Below are positions 1,917 through 61,055 of a stretch of 64,000 bases of DNA, one piece after another (within the stretch, counting starts at the first letter, position 1; each line of letters opens with the position of its first letter). This stretch comes from an uncultured Clostridia bacterium (GTDB taxonomy: Bacteria > Bacillota > Clostridia > Christensenellales > UBA1242). A program made the translations under genes and the position numbers. The stretch lies in NCBI GenBank assembly GCA_930990515.1, contig CAKNPS010000001.1, positions 103,280 to 167,279 on the forward strand, given 5' to 3'. Below the pieces are notes generated by a model. It saw nothing but the letters and a program-made list of their open reading frames with translations. It was not told the DNA's origin and did no database searches.

Positions 1917-2127
1917 TTCGACAAAAATAGCCTAATATTTTACAAAAATTTTTAAAAAGGAAAGGGTACATTCTAAGTATAAGTATAATATAAGTGCATA
2001 ATACACTATATTTTGTGGTGGTATGCAATAGTTGTCTCAATTTATACCATACTTATAGTTTGCTCAAAAACGACAATTTTTATAATCATTTAGTGTTTTT
2101 TTGAAATTTTGTCGTAAATTTGTCGAA
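1917..2127. promoter_or_regulatory. cluster of Spo0A-box-like heptamers (TGTCGAA) in the divergent region upstream of spoIVB
   Basis: TTCGACA at 1917-1923, AACGACA at 2069-2075, TGTCGTA at 2110-2116 and TGTCGAA at 2121-2127. The last two are direct repeats 11 bp apart. Confidence 0.3.
1995..2027. repeat. palindromic repeat family, copy A (inside-out arrangement)
   Basis: TGCATAATACAC-tatatttt-GTGGTGGTATGCA. The two half-sites face away from each other around a CAC-N10-GTG spacer. Confidence 0.7.
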
Positions 2128-2186
2128 ATTTCTCTAAAAATGCCTAATGTCCGTATAAATTTTTGAAAACGCAAGATACTAGAAAA

Positions 2187-3353
2187 ATGAGAAAAAATTT
2201 TTGGATATTCTATAGTTTTTTATGTTGTTTGGTTGTCGTGCTTATCGTTATGCCAATAATTGATATTTATAGCATTGAAGAAAATTTCTTAGTTAGTTTT
2301 GAAGATATGGAAACAGCAAATTCCAATGGAACTTTTGGAGCATACATTAGTGGCGAACTTGAACAAAAAGATCAATCAACAGGTTTAGAACAAACAAAAA
2401 CAGGAGAAGTGGTTTTCAAACTTTTTGGTTTTATTCCTATTCGTAAAGTTTCCGTCATTATGGTAAATGATGATGACTATTACATCGGTGGTGTTCCTAT
2501 AGGGCTTTCCATATATACAGATGGAGCGATTGTTATTGATGATAATGGAAATGATGGCATAAAAGAAGGAGATATTATCACGCAAATTGATGGCATTGAT
2601 TTTAATGAAATTGAAGATATGGAAAGTGTGTTAAAAGATAATGAAGAAGTTGAAGTTACCTATCTTCGTAAAAATAAGGAAGTAAAAACCCTTTTGAAAG
2701 TTAAGAATGAAAATAAAAAACATAAACTTGGACTTACTGTGAAAGATAATGTGACGGGTGTTGGAACTCTTACCTTTGTTAATACGAGAACTGGAGAATA
2801 TGGCGCTCTTGGGCATGCTATTATGGAAGAAGCAGGCGGAAACATTGTTCCAGTAAGCGATGGAAAAGTGTATGCGTGCAATCTTATTGGAATAACCAAG
2901 GGAGAAAAGAACAATCCTGGGCAACTTCGATGCGTATTCGTTCAAAATTCAAAAACTAAAGGAACGATTGAAACAAACAACAAGTTTGGAATAAAAGGTG
3001 TGATGACAAATACATCTGGGCTTGTTGATGAAAACTTAACAGCAAAAATTGGCGGTCGTTTTTCTGTCACACCGGGGAAAGCCACCATTGTCAGCGACAT
3101 TAGTGGAATTAAAGAAGAATATGAAATTGAAATCATAAAAGCAAACTATCAGAAGAAGGCAAACGATAAAAGTTTGGTTTTTAGAGTGAAAGACAAACGA
3201 CTTTTAAATCTTACTGGCGGAATTGTTCAGGGAATGAGTGGTTCTCCAATTATGCAAAATGGCAAAATTGTTGGGGCGGTTACACACGTATTTTTGTCTG
3301 ATGCCACAAAAGGCTATGGTGTTTACACTGATTGGATGACTCAAGACTTATAA
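2187..3353 (+). CDS. spoIVB: SpoIVB-type S55 serine peptidase (sporulation signalling protease)
   Basis: It has an N-terminal TM segment, a PDZ-like segment (GDIITQIDG), LGHAI, and the C-terminal GIVQGMSGSPIMQNGKIVGAVTHVF typical of SpoIVB. ATG 2187 is preferred over the track's TTG 2163. Confidence 0.88.
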   Translation: MRKNFWIFYSFLCCLVVVLIVMPIIDIYSIEENFLVSFEDMETANSNGTFGAYISGELEQKDQSTGLEQTKTGEVVFKLFGFIPIRKVSVIMVNDDDYYIGGVPIGLSIYTDGAIVIDDNGNDGIKEGDIITQIDGIDFNEIEDMESVLKDNEEVEVTYLRKNKEVKTLLKVKNENKKHKLGLTVKDNVTGVGTLTFVNTRTGEYGALGHAIMEEAGGNIVPVSDGKVYACNLIGITKGEKNNPGQLRCVFVQNSKTKGTIETNNKFGIKGVMTNTSGLVDENLTAKIGGRFSVTPGKATIVSDISGIKEEYEIEIIKANYQKKANDKSLVFRVKDKRLLNLTGGIVQGMSGSPIMQNGKIVGAVTHVFLSDATKGYGVYTDWMTQDL

Positions 3354-3564: not shown

Positions 3565-4617
3565 ATGAATATGAAAAATTTGACCTATTTTGAAAAGCGT
3601 GACTTAAAAAATATGGAAAGGATAGGGGAGTATCTTCAAAAACTGCCAGAATATTGTTATGATTATTTCACTGGCATTGAACTTAACACTTCTTCTCTTA
3701 CAAGACTAAATTATGCAATGGATATTTCCATATTTTATGAGTATTTATCTAAATATGTTTTTAAAAAAGATATTAAAAATATTACGCTAGAAGATTTAGA
3801 TTCCTTGGAAGCAAGAAATATTGAAAGTTTTTTGTCCTATCTTTCTTTTTATCAAATTGATGATAAGGTCTATAAGAACAATGAAAAAGGTAAGGCAAGA
3901 AAACTTGCCAGTGTGAGAAGTTTTTTTAAATATCTTTTCAATCACGATATGATTTATAGAAATGTGGTGAGCAAAGTGCCAACACCGAAACTTCATAGCA
4001 AGGAGATAATAAGATTAGAGAGTGATGAAGTTGAAAGAATGCTTGATGCTGTTCAAATGCCAACCACATTCACTGAAAGACAAAAAAACTATAACAAAAA
4101 CACCAAGGTGCGTGATAATGCCATTGTGACACTTTTTTTAGGCACTGGCATAAGAGTAAGCGAACTTGTAGGGCTAAATGTGGAAGATATTGATTTTTCA
4201 CAAAACGCTTTCAAGGTCACAAGAAAGGGTGGAAATCAGGTTATTTTGTATTATCCTAATGAAGTCAAGTATGCTCTTCAAGAGTGGCTTGAGATAAGAA
4301 AAACTTTGCCGATTGATGAAAATGAAAAAGCGTTATTCATTTCCCTTCAAAACAGAAGAATCTGCACTCGAGCAGTGGAAAACCTTGTTAAAAAGTTTGC
4401 AAGAGAAAGCACACCTTTAAAGAAGATTTCTCCGCATAAACTTCGTTCCACTTTTGGCACAAATTTATATAGAGAAACTAAAGACATTTATATTGTTGCT
4501 GACGTTTTGGGACATAAAGATGTTAACACCACAAAGAAACACTATGCGGCTATTGATGATGACATTAGAAAGAATGCAGCAAAGAAAGTTAAAATTACAA
4601 ATAGTTTGTATGAATAA
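3565..4617 (+). CDS. tyrosine site-specific recombinase, XerC/XerD-like (phage integrase family)
   Basis: Catalytic residues are present in GTGIRVSEL (Arg), HKLRSTFGT (His-x-x-Arg) and LGHKDVNTTKKHY (His, Tyr), with an N-terminal SAM-like core-binding domain. The true start may be ATG 3571 if the mRNA is leaderless. Confidence 0.85.
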   Translation: MNMKNLTYFEKRDLKNMERIGEYLQKLPEYCYDYFTGIELNTSSLTRLNYAMDISIFYEYLSKYVFKKDIKNITLEDLDSLEARNIESFLSYLSFYQIDDKVYKNNEKGKARKLASVRSFFKYLFNHDMIYRNVVSKVPTPKLHSKEIIRLESDEVERMLDAVQMPTTFTERQKNYNKNTKVRDNAIVTLFLGTGIRVSELVGLNVEDIDFSQNAFKVTRKGGNQVILYYPNEVKYALQEWLEIRKTLPIDENEKALFISLQNRRICTRAVENLVKKFARESTPLKKISPHKLRSTFGTNLYRETKDIYIVADVLGHKDVNTTKKHYAAIDDDIRKNAAKKVKITNSLYE

Positions 4618-4622
4618 TCAAC

Positions 4623-4657
4623 ATATAGAGTGTTATGCAATGCGTAATACTCTATAT
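4623..4657. repeat. palindromic repeat family, copy B
   Basis: ATATAGAGTGTTATGCA-A-TGCGTAATACTCTATAT (15/17 arm match), starting 6 nt after the xer stop. Confidence 0.75.
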
Positions 4658-4809
4658 TTAGTTTAAAATCTTTAACTAAATTTTGTTTAATTACTATTTG
4701 CTTTTGTCAAATTTTTGCACTTACCTTTAAACTTTAATTGTTTTCTAAGGCAAATAAGTTGATATAAAAACGGAAAAAAGCAATGTTTTTATTTTGCTTT
4801 TTATATATT

Positions 4810-17829: not shown

Positions 17830-17856
17830 GTATTATGCAAAAATAATGCATAATAC
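17830..17856. repeat. palindromic repeat family, copy C (split core)
   Basis: GTATTATGCA-aaaataa-TGCATAATAC with perfect 10-bp arms, followed by CACAATATTTTG. Confidence 0.7.
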
Positions 17857-18218
17857 CACAATATTTTGATAAATTTTACTGCATATCACACTATATATTG
17901 ATTATTTATTCGCAAAACCTGTCTTTTGCGAATAGATATGTGTATACTTTTTTTATAAATCGCCCTAAAATTTTGTTATACAAATGGTTATCATTTAAGA
18001 TGTTTTTATATCAAAAATTGCATACAGGGTCTTTCTATTTCAAATTTATATTCATAAAATTTTAAATTTTTATCTTATACAAAACTTTCGTTTTTCCGCG
18101 TTTTTATATGCCAAATTTCACTTTTAAAGTTCATATAAATTCAAACTAGTTTATAATCTATTTCCTGCCCCAAATTTTAGCAGAATAAATTAATAACCTC
18201 CCCCAAAAATCTAAAGCA

Positions 18219-19040: not shown

Positions 19041-19421
19041 TTATGCAACAAACATAGCCATAATAAAAAGTCCTGCCACACCAAAAGCAAATATGATTTT
19101 GCAGATATTAATTGTTTTGTCTTTTATTGTTTTTTTATTAAATTGCTTTTTATAATAAGCAATATTTTTCTCAAATTCCTCACTTGTTACACCTTTTGAA
19201 TTGATTGTTTCTGCCTTGTAATAATTGAAATCATCTTCAAGTTCTGCCTTGAAAGATGTGCAGTAATAACAAATCAAATGCCCTGCCCAAGCAAGTGAGA
19301 GCAATGTTAAAAGTGAAAGCGTGAAATAACTAAATCCGCCCCAAACTTGAATAAGTAATGCGAATATAATGCTTAAAACTATTAAAACTGCACTAATAAT
19401 ATAAATTATATTCCCTTTCAT
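19041..19421 (-). CDS. hypothetical membrane protein
   Basis: Three predicted TM segments, a good SD (AAGGAAAG) and no recognisable motif. Confidence 0.6.
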   Translation of the reverse strand: MKGNIIYIISAVLIVLSIIFALLIQVWGGFSYFTLSLLTLLSLAWAGHLICYYCTSFKAELEDDFNYYKAETINSKGVTSEEFEKNIAYYKKQFNKKTIKDKTINICKIIFAFGVAGLFIMAMFVA

Positions 19422-25142: not shown

Positions 25143-25184
25143 CATATATAGTGTATTATGCAATGCATACCACAATATATTTTG
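25143..25184. repeat. palindromic repeat family, copy D (ruvA-ruvB spacer)
   Basis: CATATATAGTGTATTATGCA-A-TGCATACCACAATATATTTTG. Confidence 0.8.
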
Positions 25185-28227: not shown

Positions 28228-28950
28228 TTAGAAATTATCTTTAGCAATTTCATACATAATAATCGAACCACTTACTCCAGCATTTAAACTTTCAATTCCT
28301 TCTTTCATAGGAATTTTTACACTGGTATAGCATAGAGCGGAAATCTCTTCACTTAAACCTTGCCCTTCATTGCCTATGACAATTCCAACATTTCCATTTG
28401 GTTTAAAAGTGAAAATGTTTTCGCCGTTCATATCACATTTGATAAGATTTAAAGTGTTTTGTTTAGAAAATTCGACAAAGTCATTTCGTGACATTGAATA
28501 AACTTTAATTCCAAAAACTGCCCCAACAGACGAGCGAATAAGTTTGGAATTTGTCACACTTACAGAGTCCACCAAAAACACAGAGTCCATTCCCGTTGCT
28601 TTGGCAGTTCGAATGAGTGTGCCCACATTTCCCGGGTCTTGGAGTCCGTCCAAAACCAAAAAGTGATTTTTAGGCTTAACCACAACATCTTGATTGTAGT
28701 ATGCAATGCATAATACTTTCTGTGGTGTTTTTGTGTCCGAAAGAATTTCTATTGTTCTCTCGTCAACACGATAAACCCTGCAAGTTGTCTTGAATGGCAA
28801 CTCGTCCAAACTTGTCAAGATGTATTCAATTTTTAAGTTTTTATTATCTAAATTATCTTTAATTATTTTGACATTATCCAAAAAAAGCAAAGACTTATCT
28901 CGTTTTTGCTTTTTAAGGTTAGATATTAAACTTTTGGTCGCCCGTTCCAT
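28228..28950 (-). CDS. TrmH/SpoU-family RNA 2'-O-methyltransferase (YsgA-like, downstream of rplT)
   Basis: SpoU motifs LDGLQDPGNVGTLIRTA, IVIGNEGQGLS and IPM..GIESLNA. Confidence 0.88.
   Translation of the reverse strand: MERATKSLISNLKKQKRDKSLLFLDNVKIIKDNLDNKNLKIEYILTSLDELPFKTTCRVYRVDERTIEILSDTKTPQKVLCIAYYNQDVVVKPKNHFLVLDGLQDPGNVGTLIRTAKATGMDSVFLVDSVSVTNSKLIRSSVGAVFGIKVYSMSRNDFVEFSKQNTLNLIKCDMNGENIFTFKPNGNVGIVIGNEGQGLSEEISALCYTSVKIPMKEGIESLNAGVSGSIIMYEIAKDNF
28697..28717. repeat. palindromic repeat family, copy E (inside the TrmH-family CDS)
   Basis: GTAGTATGCA-A-TGCATAATAC. Its reverse complement is identical to the 21-mer of copy F. It encodes VLCIAYY. Confidence 0.75.
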
Positions 28951-33577: not shown

Positions 33578-33623
33578 CAATATCTTGTTGTATTATGCAT
33601 TGCATACTACCACATATTTTGTG
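33578..33623. repeat. palindromic repeat family, copy F (upstream of polA)
   Basis: ...CTTGTTGTATTATGCA-T-TGCATACTACCACATATTTTGTG. Confidence 0.8.
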
Positions 33624-33941
33624 TTATAGTAGCGAAAGTGGATTTACTGAACTAAACCAACTGTAAATTACATCTGGGCAAGCCATAACAATAATATAGA
33701 CAACAATTGCCACAATAAGAATTATGAAGAAAACAACTTTTAATGGATTCCCTGCAAAATTGACGAGTGCGAAACAGAAAATAATTGCCACACCACCAAA
33801 GTTCACAATCAAATCAAACCAAGTGCGGAATGCTCCCATATCTGGTTCCCACGCAGTCTGTGTATCAATGACATTTACAATCAAAAAGCAAATATAAACC
33901 ACTGAAAGTATCGACAAAATTGTGTAAAGAACTTTTTTCAT
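33624..33941 (-). CDS. hypothetical small membrane protein
   Basis: Three TM segments. It has its own candidate promoter (TTGTAA, 17 nt, TGc-TAGAAT) downstream of the island terminator. Confidence 0.55.
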   Translation of the reverse strand: MKKVLYTILSILSVVYICFLIVNVIDTQTAWEPDMGAFRTWFDLIVNFGGVAIIFCFALVNFAGNPLKVVFFIILIVAIVVYIIVMACPDVIYSWFSSVNPLSLL

Positions 33942-51340: not shown

Positions 51341-51377
51341 CACAATATATAGTGTAGTATGCATTGCATAACACAAC
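51341..51377. repeat. palindromic repeat family, copy G (pheS-pheT spacer)
   Basis: CACAATATATAGTGTAGTATGCA-T-TGCATAACACAAC. Confidence 0.8.
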
Positions 51378-60185: not shown

Positions 60186-61055
60186 TTAAAAATCGGCTAA
60201 TCTTATTTTCATTTTTAAGTTTTTTTCTCTAACTTCTCCAACTCCTAAAAATTGATTATTAAAGTAAATCTTGTAAAAAGCATCTTTAAAATCAATAATT
60301 AATTGTTGACCATTTTTTAACTTAAAAAAGTCATTTTCGCTTAAGTTTATAATATCATAATCAAATAAATTTTGGCAAGGAATAATCTCAAAATTTCCTT
60401 TTTCAATATCTTCTAATAAATAAGCATCTTTTATGCAGAATACACCACATCTTGTGCGTAGTATGCATTGCATACTACCATAAGTGCCAAGTTTATATGC
60501 CAAATCACGACAAACACTTCTTATGTAAGTTCCACTTGAACAAGTGATTTCAAAGCGGAAAGTTCTGTTATTAATCTTCTTCAAAATCTTGAACTCATAA
60601 ATTTCCACTTCTTTTGGCGATAAATTGATTGTTTCTCCAACTCGTGCAAGTTTATACCCCACCTGTCCATTGACTTTTTTTGCACTATATTGTGGTGGCA
60701 TTTGCATATACTTTCCAATCATTGAATTAACTGCCATTTTTAACTCATTATCACTAAAATTCACTTCACATTCTTTAACAATTTTTCCTGATGTGTCCAA
60801 AGTGTCCGTTTCAAAACCAAAAACAAATTCTGTTTCATAAGTTTTATCTTTTTGAAGATAAAAATCAAACAATTTTGTGGCATTATTTATTGTGACTGGC
60901 AAAAGTCCTTCTCCTTCCAAGTCAAGAGTCCCTAGATGCCCGCATTTTTTTGCACCTAACTTAAATTTAACAATGTTTACCACTTTGTTAGAAGAAATAC
61001 CTTTCGGCTTATTTACTAAAACAATTCCGCTATCTTTAAATCTATATTCTTTCAC
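60186..61055 (-). CDS. truB: tRNA pseudouridine(55) synthase
   Basis: VNKPKGISSNKVV and catalytic GHLGTLDLEGEGLLP. Confidence 0.94.
   Translation of the reverse strand: MKEYRFKDSGIVLVNKPKGISSNKVVNIVKFKLGAKKCGHLGTLDLEGEGLLPVTINNATKLFDFYLQKDKTYETEFVFGFETDTLDTSGKIVKECEVNFSDNELKMAVNSMIGKYMQMPPQYSAKKVNGQVGYKLARVGETINLSPKEVEIYEFKILKKINNRTFRFEITCSSGTYIRSVCRDLAYKLGTYGSMQCILRTRCGVFCIKDAYLLEDIEKGNFEIIPCQNLFDYDIINLSENDFFKLKNGQQLIIDFKDAFYKIYFNNQFLGVGEVREKNLKMKIRLADF
60458..60478. repeat. palindromic repeat family, copy H (inside truB)
   Basis: A perfect 21-bp palindrome GTAGTATGCA-T-TGCATACTAC that encodes GSMQCIL in the conserved TruB core. Confidence 0.75.

Follow-up and report, generated by a model that had tools for sequence, protein, structure and literature searches.

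To our knowledge, organizers of the chromosomal terminus domain are known in detail only in enterobacteria (MatP/matS) and in Bacillus (XerD/XDS). Two further systems read position along the chromosome from the complementary side: the sites of the ParB-like protein Noc (NBS, Bacillus subtilis) and of the TetR protein SlmA (SBS, Escherichia coli) lie everywhere except at the terminus, and Noc, in addition, recruits DNA to the membrane. In the MatP system, 23 matS sites are found in 800 kb (PMC3330122). In B. subtilis, XDS are dif-like terminus sites at which XerD unloads SMC (Karaboja 2021, as cited in PMC11840125 and PMC11894783).

Here we describe a family of palindromic sites, termed TerPal, around the replication terminus of an uncultured Clostridia bacterium. 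Like matS, TerPal is a short palindrome with a 6-1-6 core geometry that is present in tens of copies at most over about 17–19% of the chromosome around dif; it also meets the test of being confined to the terminus both inside and between genes, and its role is presumed to be the marking of a domain. Unlike matS, TerPal has the core TATGCAWTGCATA, which does not match GTGACRNYGTCAC, and its half-sites are also found in arrangements that are not palindromic. MatP is a soluble protein that makes contact with the divisome via ZapB, whereas the candidate binder of TerPal is an integral-membrane PadR winged-helix protein. A search of the genome for MatP (PF06303) did not find it, the sole match scoring 16.6 bits (E = 0.01; cut-off, 27 bits) and containing three internal stops. 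As with XDS and XerD, multiple sites are scattered in a Bacillota terminus near dif and one stands beside xer; unlike XDS, TerPal fails the test of similarity to the dif of its own lineage, and only one XerS-like recombinase is present instead of a XerC/XerD pair. TerPal shares with the sites of Noc and SlmA a distribution that encodes position relative to the terminus, with the difference that it occurs only there, that its binding is inferred and that the candidate binder comes from a protein family unrelated to either.

Results

Palindromes inside truB and trmH are conserved as DNA

The window, that is, the whole stretch of 64,000 nucleotides that was analyzed (C1:103280-167279), belongs to a 1.18-Mb genome of 32% G+C that is assembled in 10 contigs and is 89% coding. 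Its features are listed in Table 1. The TerPal copy in truB, GTAGTATGCATTGCATACTAC, consists of 10-bp arms around one central base and is as perfect as an odd-length palindrome allows. It lies 574 nt into the coding region and is read in frame on the minus strand as G-GT AGT ATG CAA TGC ATA CTA C-GC, encoding (G)SMQCIL(R), which bears out the observation of an earlier note that a 21-bp palindrome is embedded in frame in this gene.

Table 1. Coordinates of TerPal sites and associated genes, given as positions in the window unless a contig is named.
Feature	Position	Strand	Details
Everted half-site pair TGCATAATAC-N13-GTGGTATGCA	1995-2027	.	Divergent gap upstream of spoIVB
XerS-like tyrosine recombinase gene	3565-4617	+	Only chromosomal Xer candidate; 13 kb from dif
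TerPal-type palindrome GTGTTATGCAATGCGTAATAC	4630-4650	.	Starts 12 bp past xer stop codon
Two half-sites, GTATTATGCA-AAAATAA-TGCATAATAC	17830-17856	.	7-bp spacer; terminus gap
Single TerPal unit, TGCATATCAC + ACTATATATTGA	17880-17901	.	Ends 5 bp before dif
dif-type site TATTCGCAAAA-CCTGTC-TTTTGCGAATA	17907-17934 (C1:121186-121213)	.	11-6-11; skew flip; 770-bp convergent gap
TerPal, ruvA/ruvB	25153-25173	.	Intergenic; ACWATATATWGT-type flanks
SpoU/TrmH-family RNA methyltransferase gene	28228-28950	-	Second intragenic host; SpoU_methylase, 8e-34
TerPal copy in SpoU/TrmH-family gene, GTAGTATGCAATGCATAATAC	28696-28716	.	
TerPal, polA	33590-33610	.	Intergenic; 45 bp upstream of polA start
TerPal, pheS/pheT	51354-51374	.	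Intergenic; position kept in G062 and MAG GCA_017936585.1
truB (tRNA pseudouridine synthase) gene	60186-61055	-	Host gene; Pfam TruB_N, 2.3e-46
TerPal copy in truB	60458-60478	.	10-1-10 palindrome; +42.5 kb from dif
PadR-type gene, 551 aa	C1:65493-67145	-	Outside the window; putative TerPal binder (no binding data)

Sixteen motif-bearing truB orthologues from same-genus genomes (61–100% identity) were compared in a codon alignment. All orthologues of at least 61% identity read GGT AGT ATG CAA TGC ATA (C/A)TA CGC, and the codons that flank the motif vary synonymously. Among conserved degenerate codons, 4/6 inside the motif use a single codon versus 3/110 outside (Fisher p = 7e-5, n = 16), so the synonymous-site check proposed in the earlier note came out in favor of a constraint on the DNA. 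In the same 16 sequences, the longest invariant nucleotide run of the gene (14 nt; at most 6 elsewhere) and its most conserved 21-nt window both fall on the motif. More distant truB genes read GGT GTT ATG CAA AGC ATA CTA CGC (YGVMQSIL), three mismatches away from the palindrome. The Ser and Cys residues are confined to palindrome-bearing orthologues, with Val>Ser and Ser>Cys co-occurring with the motif; the suspicion that the unusual Cys tracks the motif is therefore correct for truB.

The copy in the trmH gene lies 234 nt into the coding region, carries one mismatch and encodes VLCIAYY on the minus strand. Mismatch and peptide are as first reported, and the position is corrected from 28697-28717 to 28696-28716. 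When orthologues were aligned, all five motif codons (5/5) used a single codon, compared to 23% outside the motif (p = 1e-3). Relatives without the palindrome read TPQGVLCIAEY, and the site was completed through TGT>TGC and Glu>Tyr. Cys-Ile/Val-Ala is thus an ancestral protein motif that the palindrome reused, and the proposal that Cys-Ile is unusual and tied to the DNA motif does not hold for this gene.

Neither coding copy is an insertion, as the earlier note had inferred from protein length: orthologue alignments contain zero indels at both sites, which arose by two or three point changes. The two copies differ in codon phase, and their peptides are unrelated; what they have in common is therefore the DNA and not the protein. 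Together with the synonymous tests in both genes, this supports the claim that the motif is maintained in addition to the coding constraint, and the site family is under DNA-level selection beyond that on protein. At places in this compact genome without a spacer, coding sequence that already nearly matched may have been turned into a site, which purifying selection on the DNA would since have held in truB and trmH. As to the type of motif, the suggestion of a protein-binding or architecture-imparting site is supported, in the absence of binding data, and the dismissal of REP elements was upheld. Uptake sequences and Chi-like motifs, also suggested, do not fit because TerPal is a palindrome of about 20 copies that is confined to the terminus; uptake sequences, Chi and KOPS are oriented and number in the hundreds to thousands, a test that TerPal does not meet.

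TerPal sites cluster around dif

The GC skew changes sign, from + to −, at C1 ~121 kb, where genes also converge, and dnaA and parB are on contig C2, which places the replication terminus at that point of C1. By comparing the terminus gaps of this genome (G000) and a relative (G062), we found there an 11-6-11 palindrome that is single-copy in G000 and occurs once on the terminus-bearing contig in each of G062, G006 and G023. It coincides with the skew flip in G000, G062 and G023; G006 has no clear flip. Perfect 15-bp arms and a variable 6-bp center were seen in 15/16 loci of clades B and C of the PadR-type protein introduced below. With its single copy, skew and strand switch, inverted arms, variable center and nearby recombinase gene, the palindrome meets the test of dif membership, and the XerS-like recombinase very probably uses it as dif. 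This recombinase is conserved in 39/41 genus genomes; among NCBIfam models it scores highest against XerS, but the 194 bits fall short of the equivalog cut-off of 267, and we therefore call it XerS-like and not a XerS equivalog. A TerPal unit lies at most 60 bp from dif in clades A and C.

Two other candidates for dif were withdrawn once the single-copy 11-6-11 palindrome had been found in four genomes: the TerPal-like palindromes adjacent to xer, and TGTGAAG-GAGAWWTG-CTTCACA after xer, which had been considered as a second dif type in other clades. The latter is a conserved single-copy hairpin located 28–61 bp past the xer stop codon in clade B/C loci (L083-L097) and is absent from this genome. 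It contains AAGGAG-N3-ATG and is more likely the sequestered ribosome-binding site of a tiny downstream ORF. In the closest relatives, the palindrome just after xer (window 4618-4662; loci L071, L076 and L078-L082) keeps long perfect arms, ACAAAATATRGTGTAGTAT..., and its 6–8-bp center differs per species, in contrast to the invariant center of dispersed copies; a second role as the terminator hairpin of xer is possible. Conserved beside xer and the PadR-type gene is the gene of the SpoIVB peptidase (window 2163-3353; TIGR02860, 3.2e-87), which indicates that sporulation genes were retained in this reduced lineage with its 1.18-Mb genome. Contigs C5-C8, which carry six tyrosine-recombinase genes in total and of which C5 and C8 are lower in G+C (29%), are likely mobile elements or prophages.

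The TerPal family follows the consensus GTRKTATGCA-W-TGCATAMYAC and comprises about 20 sites or half-site clusters genome-wide; the ACAAYATATWGT flank often found beside the consensus is conserved. All sites fall within −104 to +122 kb of dif, ten per side; the domain so marked is centered on dif and takes up about 225 kb, or 19% of the chromosome. The window alone contains five copies at up to three mismatches, compared to 0 expected from 100 shuffles. Full copies (at most four mismatches) are all on contig C1 (8/8, 76.9–233 kb), and 34 of the 47 GT[AG]NTATGCA half-sites are found within 17% of the genome (p = 9e-17), a region that was delimited post hoc, after the data had been seen. A genome-wide count of intragenic and intergenic copies, also proposed in the earlier note, gave 8/10 full palindromes in intergenic DNA, with truB and trmH as the two coding copies, in different codon phases. 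The absence of coding copies elsewhere in the genome, which had been named as grounds for refutation, is technically met; it is not a valid refutation, because the family is so small and restricted in position. Most intergenic copies occupy tiny spacers, 25–45 bp or, more widely, 25–170 bp upstream of a start codon, and local effects on expression or mRNA are thus not excluded.

Half-sites are arranged in several ways: head-to-head with a 1-bp spacer (the 21-mer), with 0-, 7-, 11- and 12-bp spacers, everted around ACWATATATWGT, and as three direct repeats. Such variety would not usually be expected of a rigid PadR dimer and remains unexplained. The three direct repeats (GTAGTATGCAAG GTATTATGCAAT GTGGTATGCA, 12-bp period) occupy a convergent intergenic gap at C1:180049-180082 and do not fit a simple palindrome-binding dimer. 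Two other readings of the motif were rejected: avoidance of ATGCAT (NsiI-type) as a restriction site, there being none in the genome (243 observed versus 257 expected), and sigma-70 or sigma-54 promoters, the spacing of which does not fit by inspection. Three ORFs on the minus strand have no Pfam or NCBIfam match, at 665-1894 (409 aa), 19041-19421 (126 aa) and 33624-33941 (105 aa), and the first and last of them directly adjoin TerPal sites.

Terminus restriction persists through rearrangement

The 13-bp core was found in 15/25 same-genus genomes (controls, 0) and in 1/16 other families of the order. Among closer relatives, 13/13 searched carried 4–10 copies, with about 0 in reversed-pattern controls. 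In G062, the TruB of which is 66% identical, 6/6 copies are located on the 270-kb skew-flip contig, −32 to +116 kb, and the truB, trmH, pheS/pheT and two other sites are positionally conserved. Restriction of the motif to the terminus holds in three species. Gene-level synteny between C1 13–313 kb and contig C1 of G062 revealed many symmetric inversions across the terminus, and the TerPal sites stay terminus-proximal though genes change replichore. Relative to G062, the xer cassette by itself has been flipped where it stands, between spoIVB and the gene that follows. A role of TerPal sites as rearrangement endpoints received inconclusive to negative support, as only about 4/16 breakpoints between G000 and G062 touch a half-site.

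A membrane PadR-type protein is the most likely binder

The protein most likely to bind TerPal is a membrane-integral member of the PadR family, an inference from promoter adjacency, synteny and covariation that has no binding data behind it. Public annotation describes it only as an HTH regulator. Its N-terminus is a PadR winged helix (Pfam, 5.5e-16; nearest solved relatives, LmrR and PadR), followed by a Glu/Lys-rich acidic linker of 320 aa (net charge, −26) and four predicted C-terminal transmembrane helices. The clear winged helix and the palindrome at its own promoter are shared with the autoregulated repressors PadR and LmrR; the acidic linker, the four transmembrane helices and about 20 further terminus-confined sites, some of them intragenic, are not. 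No ligand-binding C-terminal helix domain was detected in the protein, and we found nothing relevant in the literature on a membrane-anchored PadR protein at the terminus.

Of 41 genus genomes, 39 have the gene, 2–5 kb from xer. In most of the genus it adjoins dif, and the dif-type palindrome lies within 1.5 kb of it at 15/16 clade B/C loci. In one further MAG the cluster reads xer-spoIVB-ygjP-padR. In this genome, rearrangement has left the gene 54 kb away from dif, and a three-arm TerPal cluster (C1:67218-67272) stands upstream of it. Half-sites or a full palindrome were found at −70 to −150, upstream of the TTGACA...TATAAT promoter of the gene, in 22/22 clade A/B loci, against a background rate of 0.023 per 200 bp; TerPal is likewise at the padR promoter in G062 and an extra MAG.

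The PadR-type proteins form three clades (A, B and C), and the site changes with them. Clades A and B have the recognition helix LKKP(T/S)(L/V)YSxLTRMEK in common and use TATGCAWTGCATA. In clade C the recognition helix reads IKLPSLYSNINRMKELK versus KKPTLYSCLTRMEKKG, with a 2-residue deletion and a different wing, and the site at the promoter is GGTATTATG-N4-CATAATACC. The core search covered six clade C genomes and found no exact 13-bp core in them except for one weak copy in G007, and in the two that were analyzed in detail (G006 and G023), variant half-sites cluster around dif. The tests for a PadR operator, namely a promoter palindrome (met at all clade A/B loci) and a site that covaries with the DNA-reading residues, are thereby met. 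Another factor could bind the padR promoter instead.

Discussion

We interpret TerPal as a family of terminus-domain sites that is bound by the membrane PadR-type protein and serves as a marker in the manner of matS/MatP, a reading to which we assign a probability of roughly 0.58. Binding and a cell-cycle role are inferred, and membrane tethering is pure inference. On this interpretation, the protein would bind TerPal sites, including the motif just upstream of its own promoter, and would tether or mark the terminus domain close to the Xer/dif machinery, at the membrane and perhaps at the septum. The result would be a counterpart in function of matS/MatP or XDS/XerD that rests on an unrelated protein.

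The same protein could instead be the sensor and regulator of an ordinary regulon, with TerPal sites as operators that tune neighbors such as ruvB, polA, pheT and others; the factor, being membrane-bound, would reach only loci close to the gene that encodes it, and clustering at the terminus would follow as a by-product. Autoregulated repression is classical for PadR proteins, the motif abuts the promoter of the PadR-type protein itself, and the position of most intergenic copies shortly upstream of start codons would suit operators. We nevertheless regard a regulon as unlikely, though not negligible, given that copies lie within operons (ruvA/ruvB and pheS/pheT) and deep in coding sequence (574 nt in truB and 234 nt in trmH), that the genes beside the sites are housekeeping genes with no functional relation to one another, that sites remain terminus-proximal even after genes switch replichore and that TerPal units flank dif itself in clades A and C. 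Binding by the recombinase is a further possibility, in which TerPal sites would be recombination-inactive binding sites of the XerS-like recombinase that unload SMC, as the XDS of B. subtilis do. Binding of XerD to dif-like terminus sites provides a precedent (PMC11840125 and PMC11894783, both citing Karaboja 2021), and the copy 12 bp past the xer stop codon, with long perfect arms and a variable 6–8-bp center in sister species, speaks for this possibility. What makes this improbable in our judgment is the existence of a real dif candidate with TATTCGCAAAA arms and a 6-bp center that is single-copy, at the skew flip and genus-wide. These arms are unlike the TerPal arms GTRKTATGCA, which argues against an XDS-like reading; the invariant center and 1-bp arm spacing of TerPal do not fit a recombinase dimer, and rearrangement breakpoints between the two species are mostly off TerPal sites.

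A repeat of the REP or MITE type would explain the 21–45-bp palindromes as hairpins (terminators or mRNA stabilizers) or as sequences spread by a transposase. REP elements begin with GTAG, as do the intergenic copies, which extend to palindromes of about 45 bp. The arms, however, vary without compensation (GTGG versus GTAT) around an invariant core, which indicates that sequence is conserved and not pairing. REP/BIME elements are high-copy, genome-wide and extragenic with conserved pairing, and TerPal, with its ~20 sites and two intragenic copies, does not meet that test (an associated RAYT transposase was outside the search). Its low copy number, restriction to 19% of the genome, orthologous positions across species with 60–65% protein identity and coding copies that arose by substitution without insertion leave this explanation only a very slim chance. 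We give as little credence, or slightly less, to a replication fork trap, in which a terminator protein would bind TerPal sites as Ter-type barriers, like those of the Bacillus RTP/Ter and E. coli Tus/Ter systems. Those systems have a similar number of sites, similarly spread about the terminus, and RTP, too, is a winged-helix dimer. Palindromic sites leave no room for a polar trap, and the search for polarity among single or asymmetric units found no switch of orientation across dif. An RTP homologue was not found in the genome (Tus was outside the search), and the test for an RTP/Ter system is not met.

Returning to TerPal as terminus-domain sites of the membrane PadR-type protein, a more specific version is possible but tentative, and we would not yet count on it. 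It holds that this is an undescribed system in which an integral-membrane PadR-type protein encoded beside dif and xer binds ~20 sites over roughly ±110 kb and so physically anchors the terminus domain at the membrane or septum, with selection for site density overwriting conserved codons of truB and trmH.

It is an open question how the terminus is marked and handled in the majority of Bacillota, among them the abundant, uncultured Clostridia of the gut; for this the present work supplies a defined DNA motif, a domain and an unexpected candidate protein that combines a transcription-factor fold with a membrane anchor. The coding copies would be a clean example of a chromosome-architecture signal that overrides amino-acid choice in conserved enzymes, which is relevant to the interpretation of 'odd' residues in alignments and to recoding and synthetic-genome work. 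Clades A/B and C are natural specificity variants that make the question directly testable in vitro.
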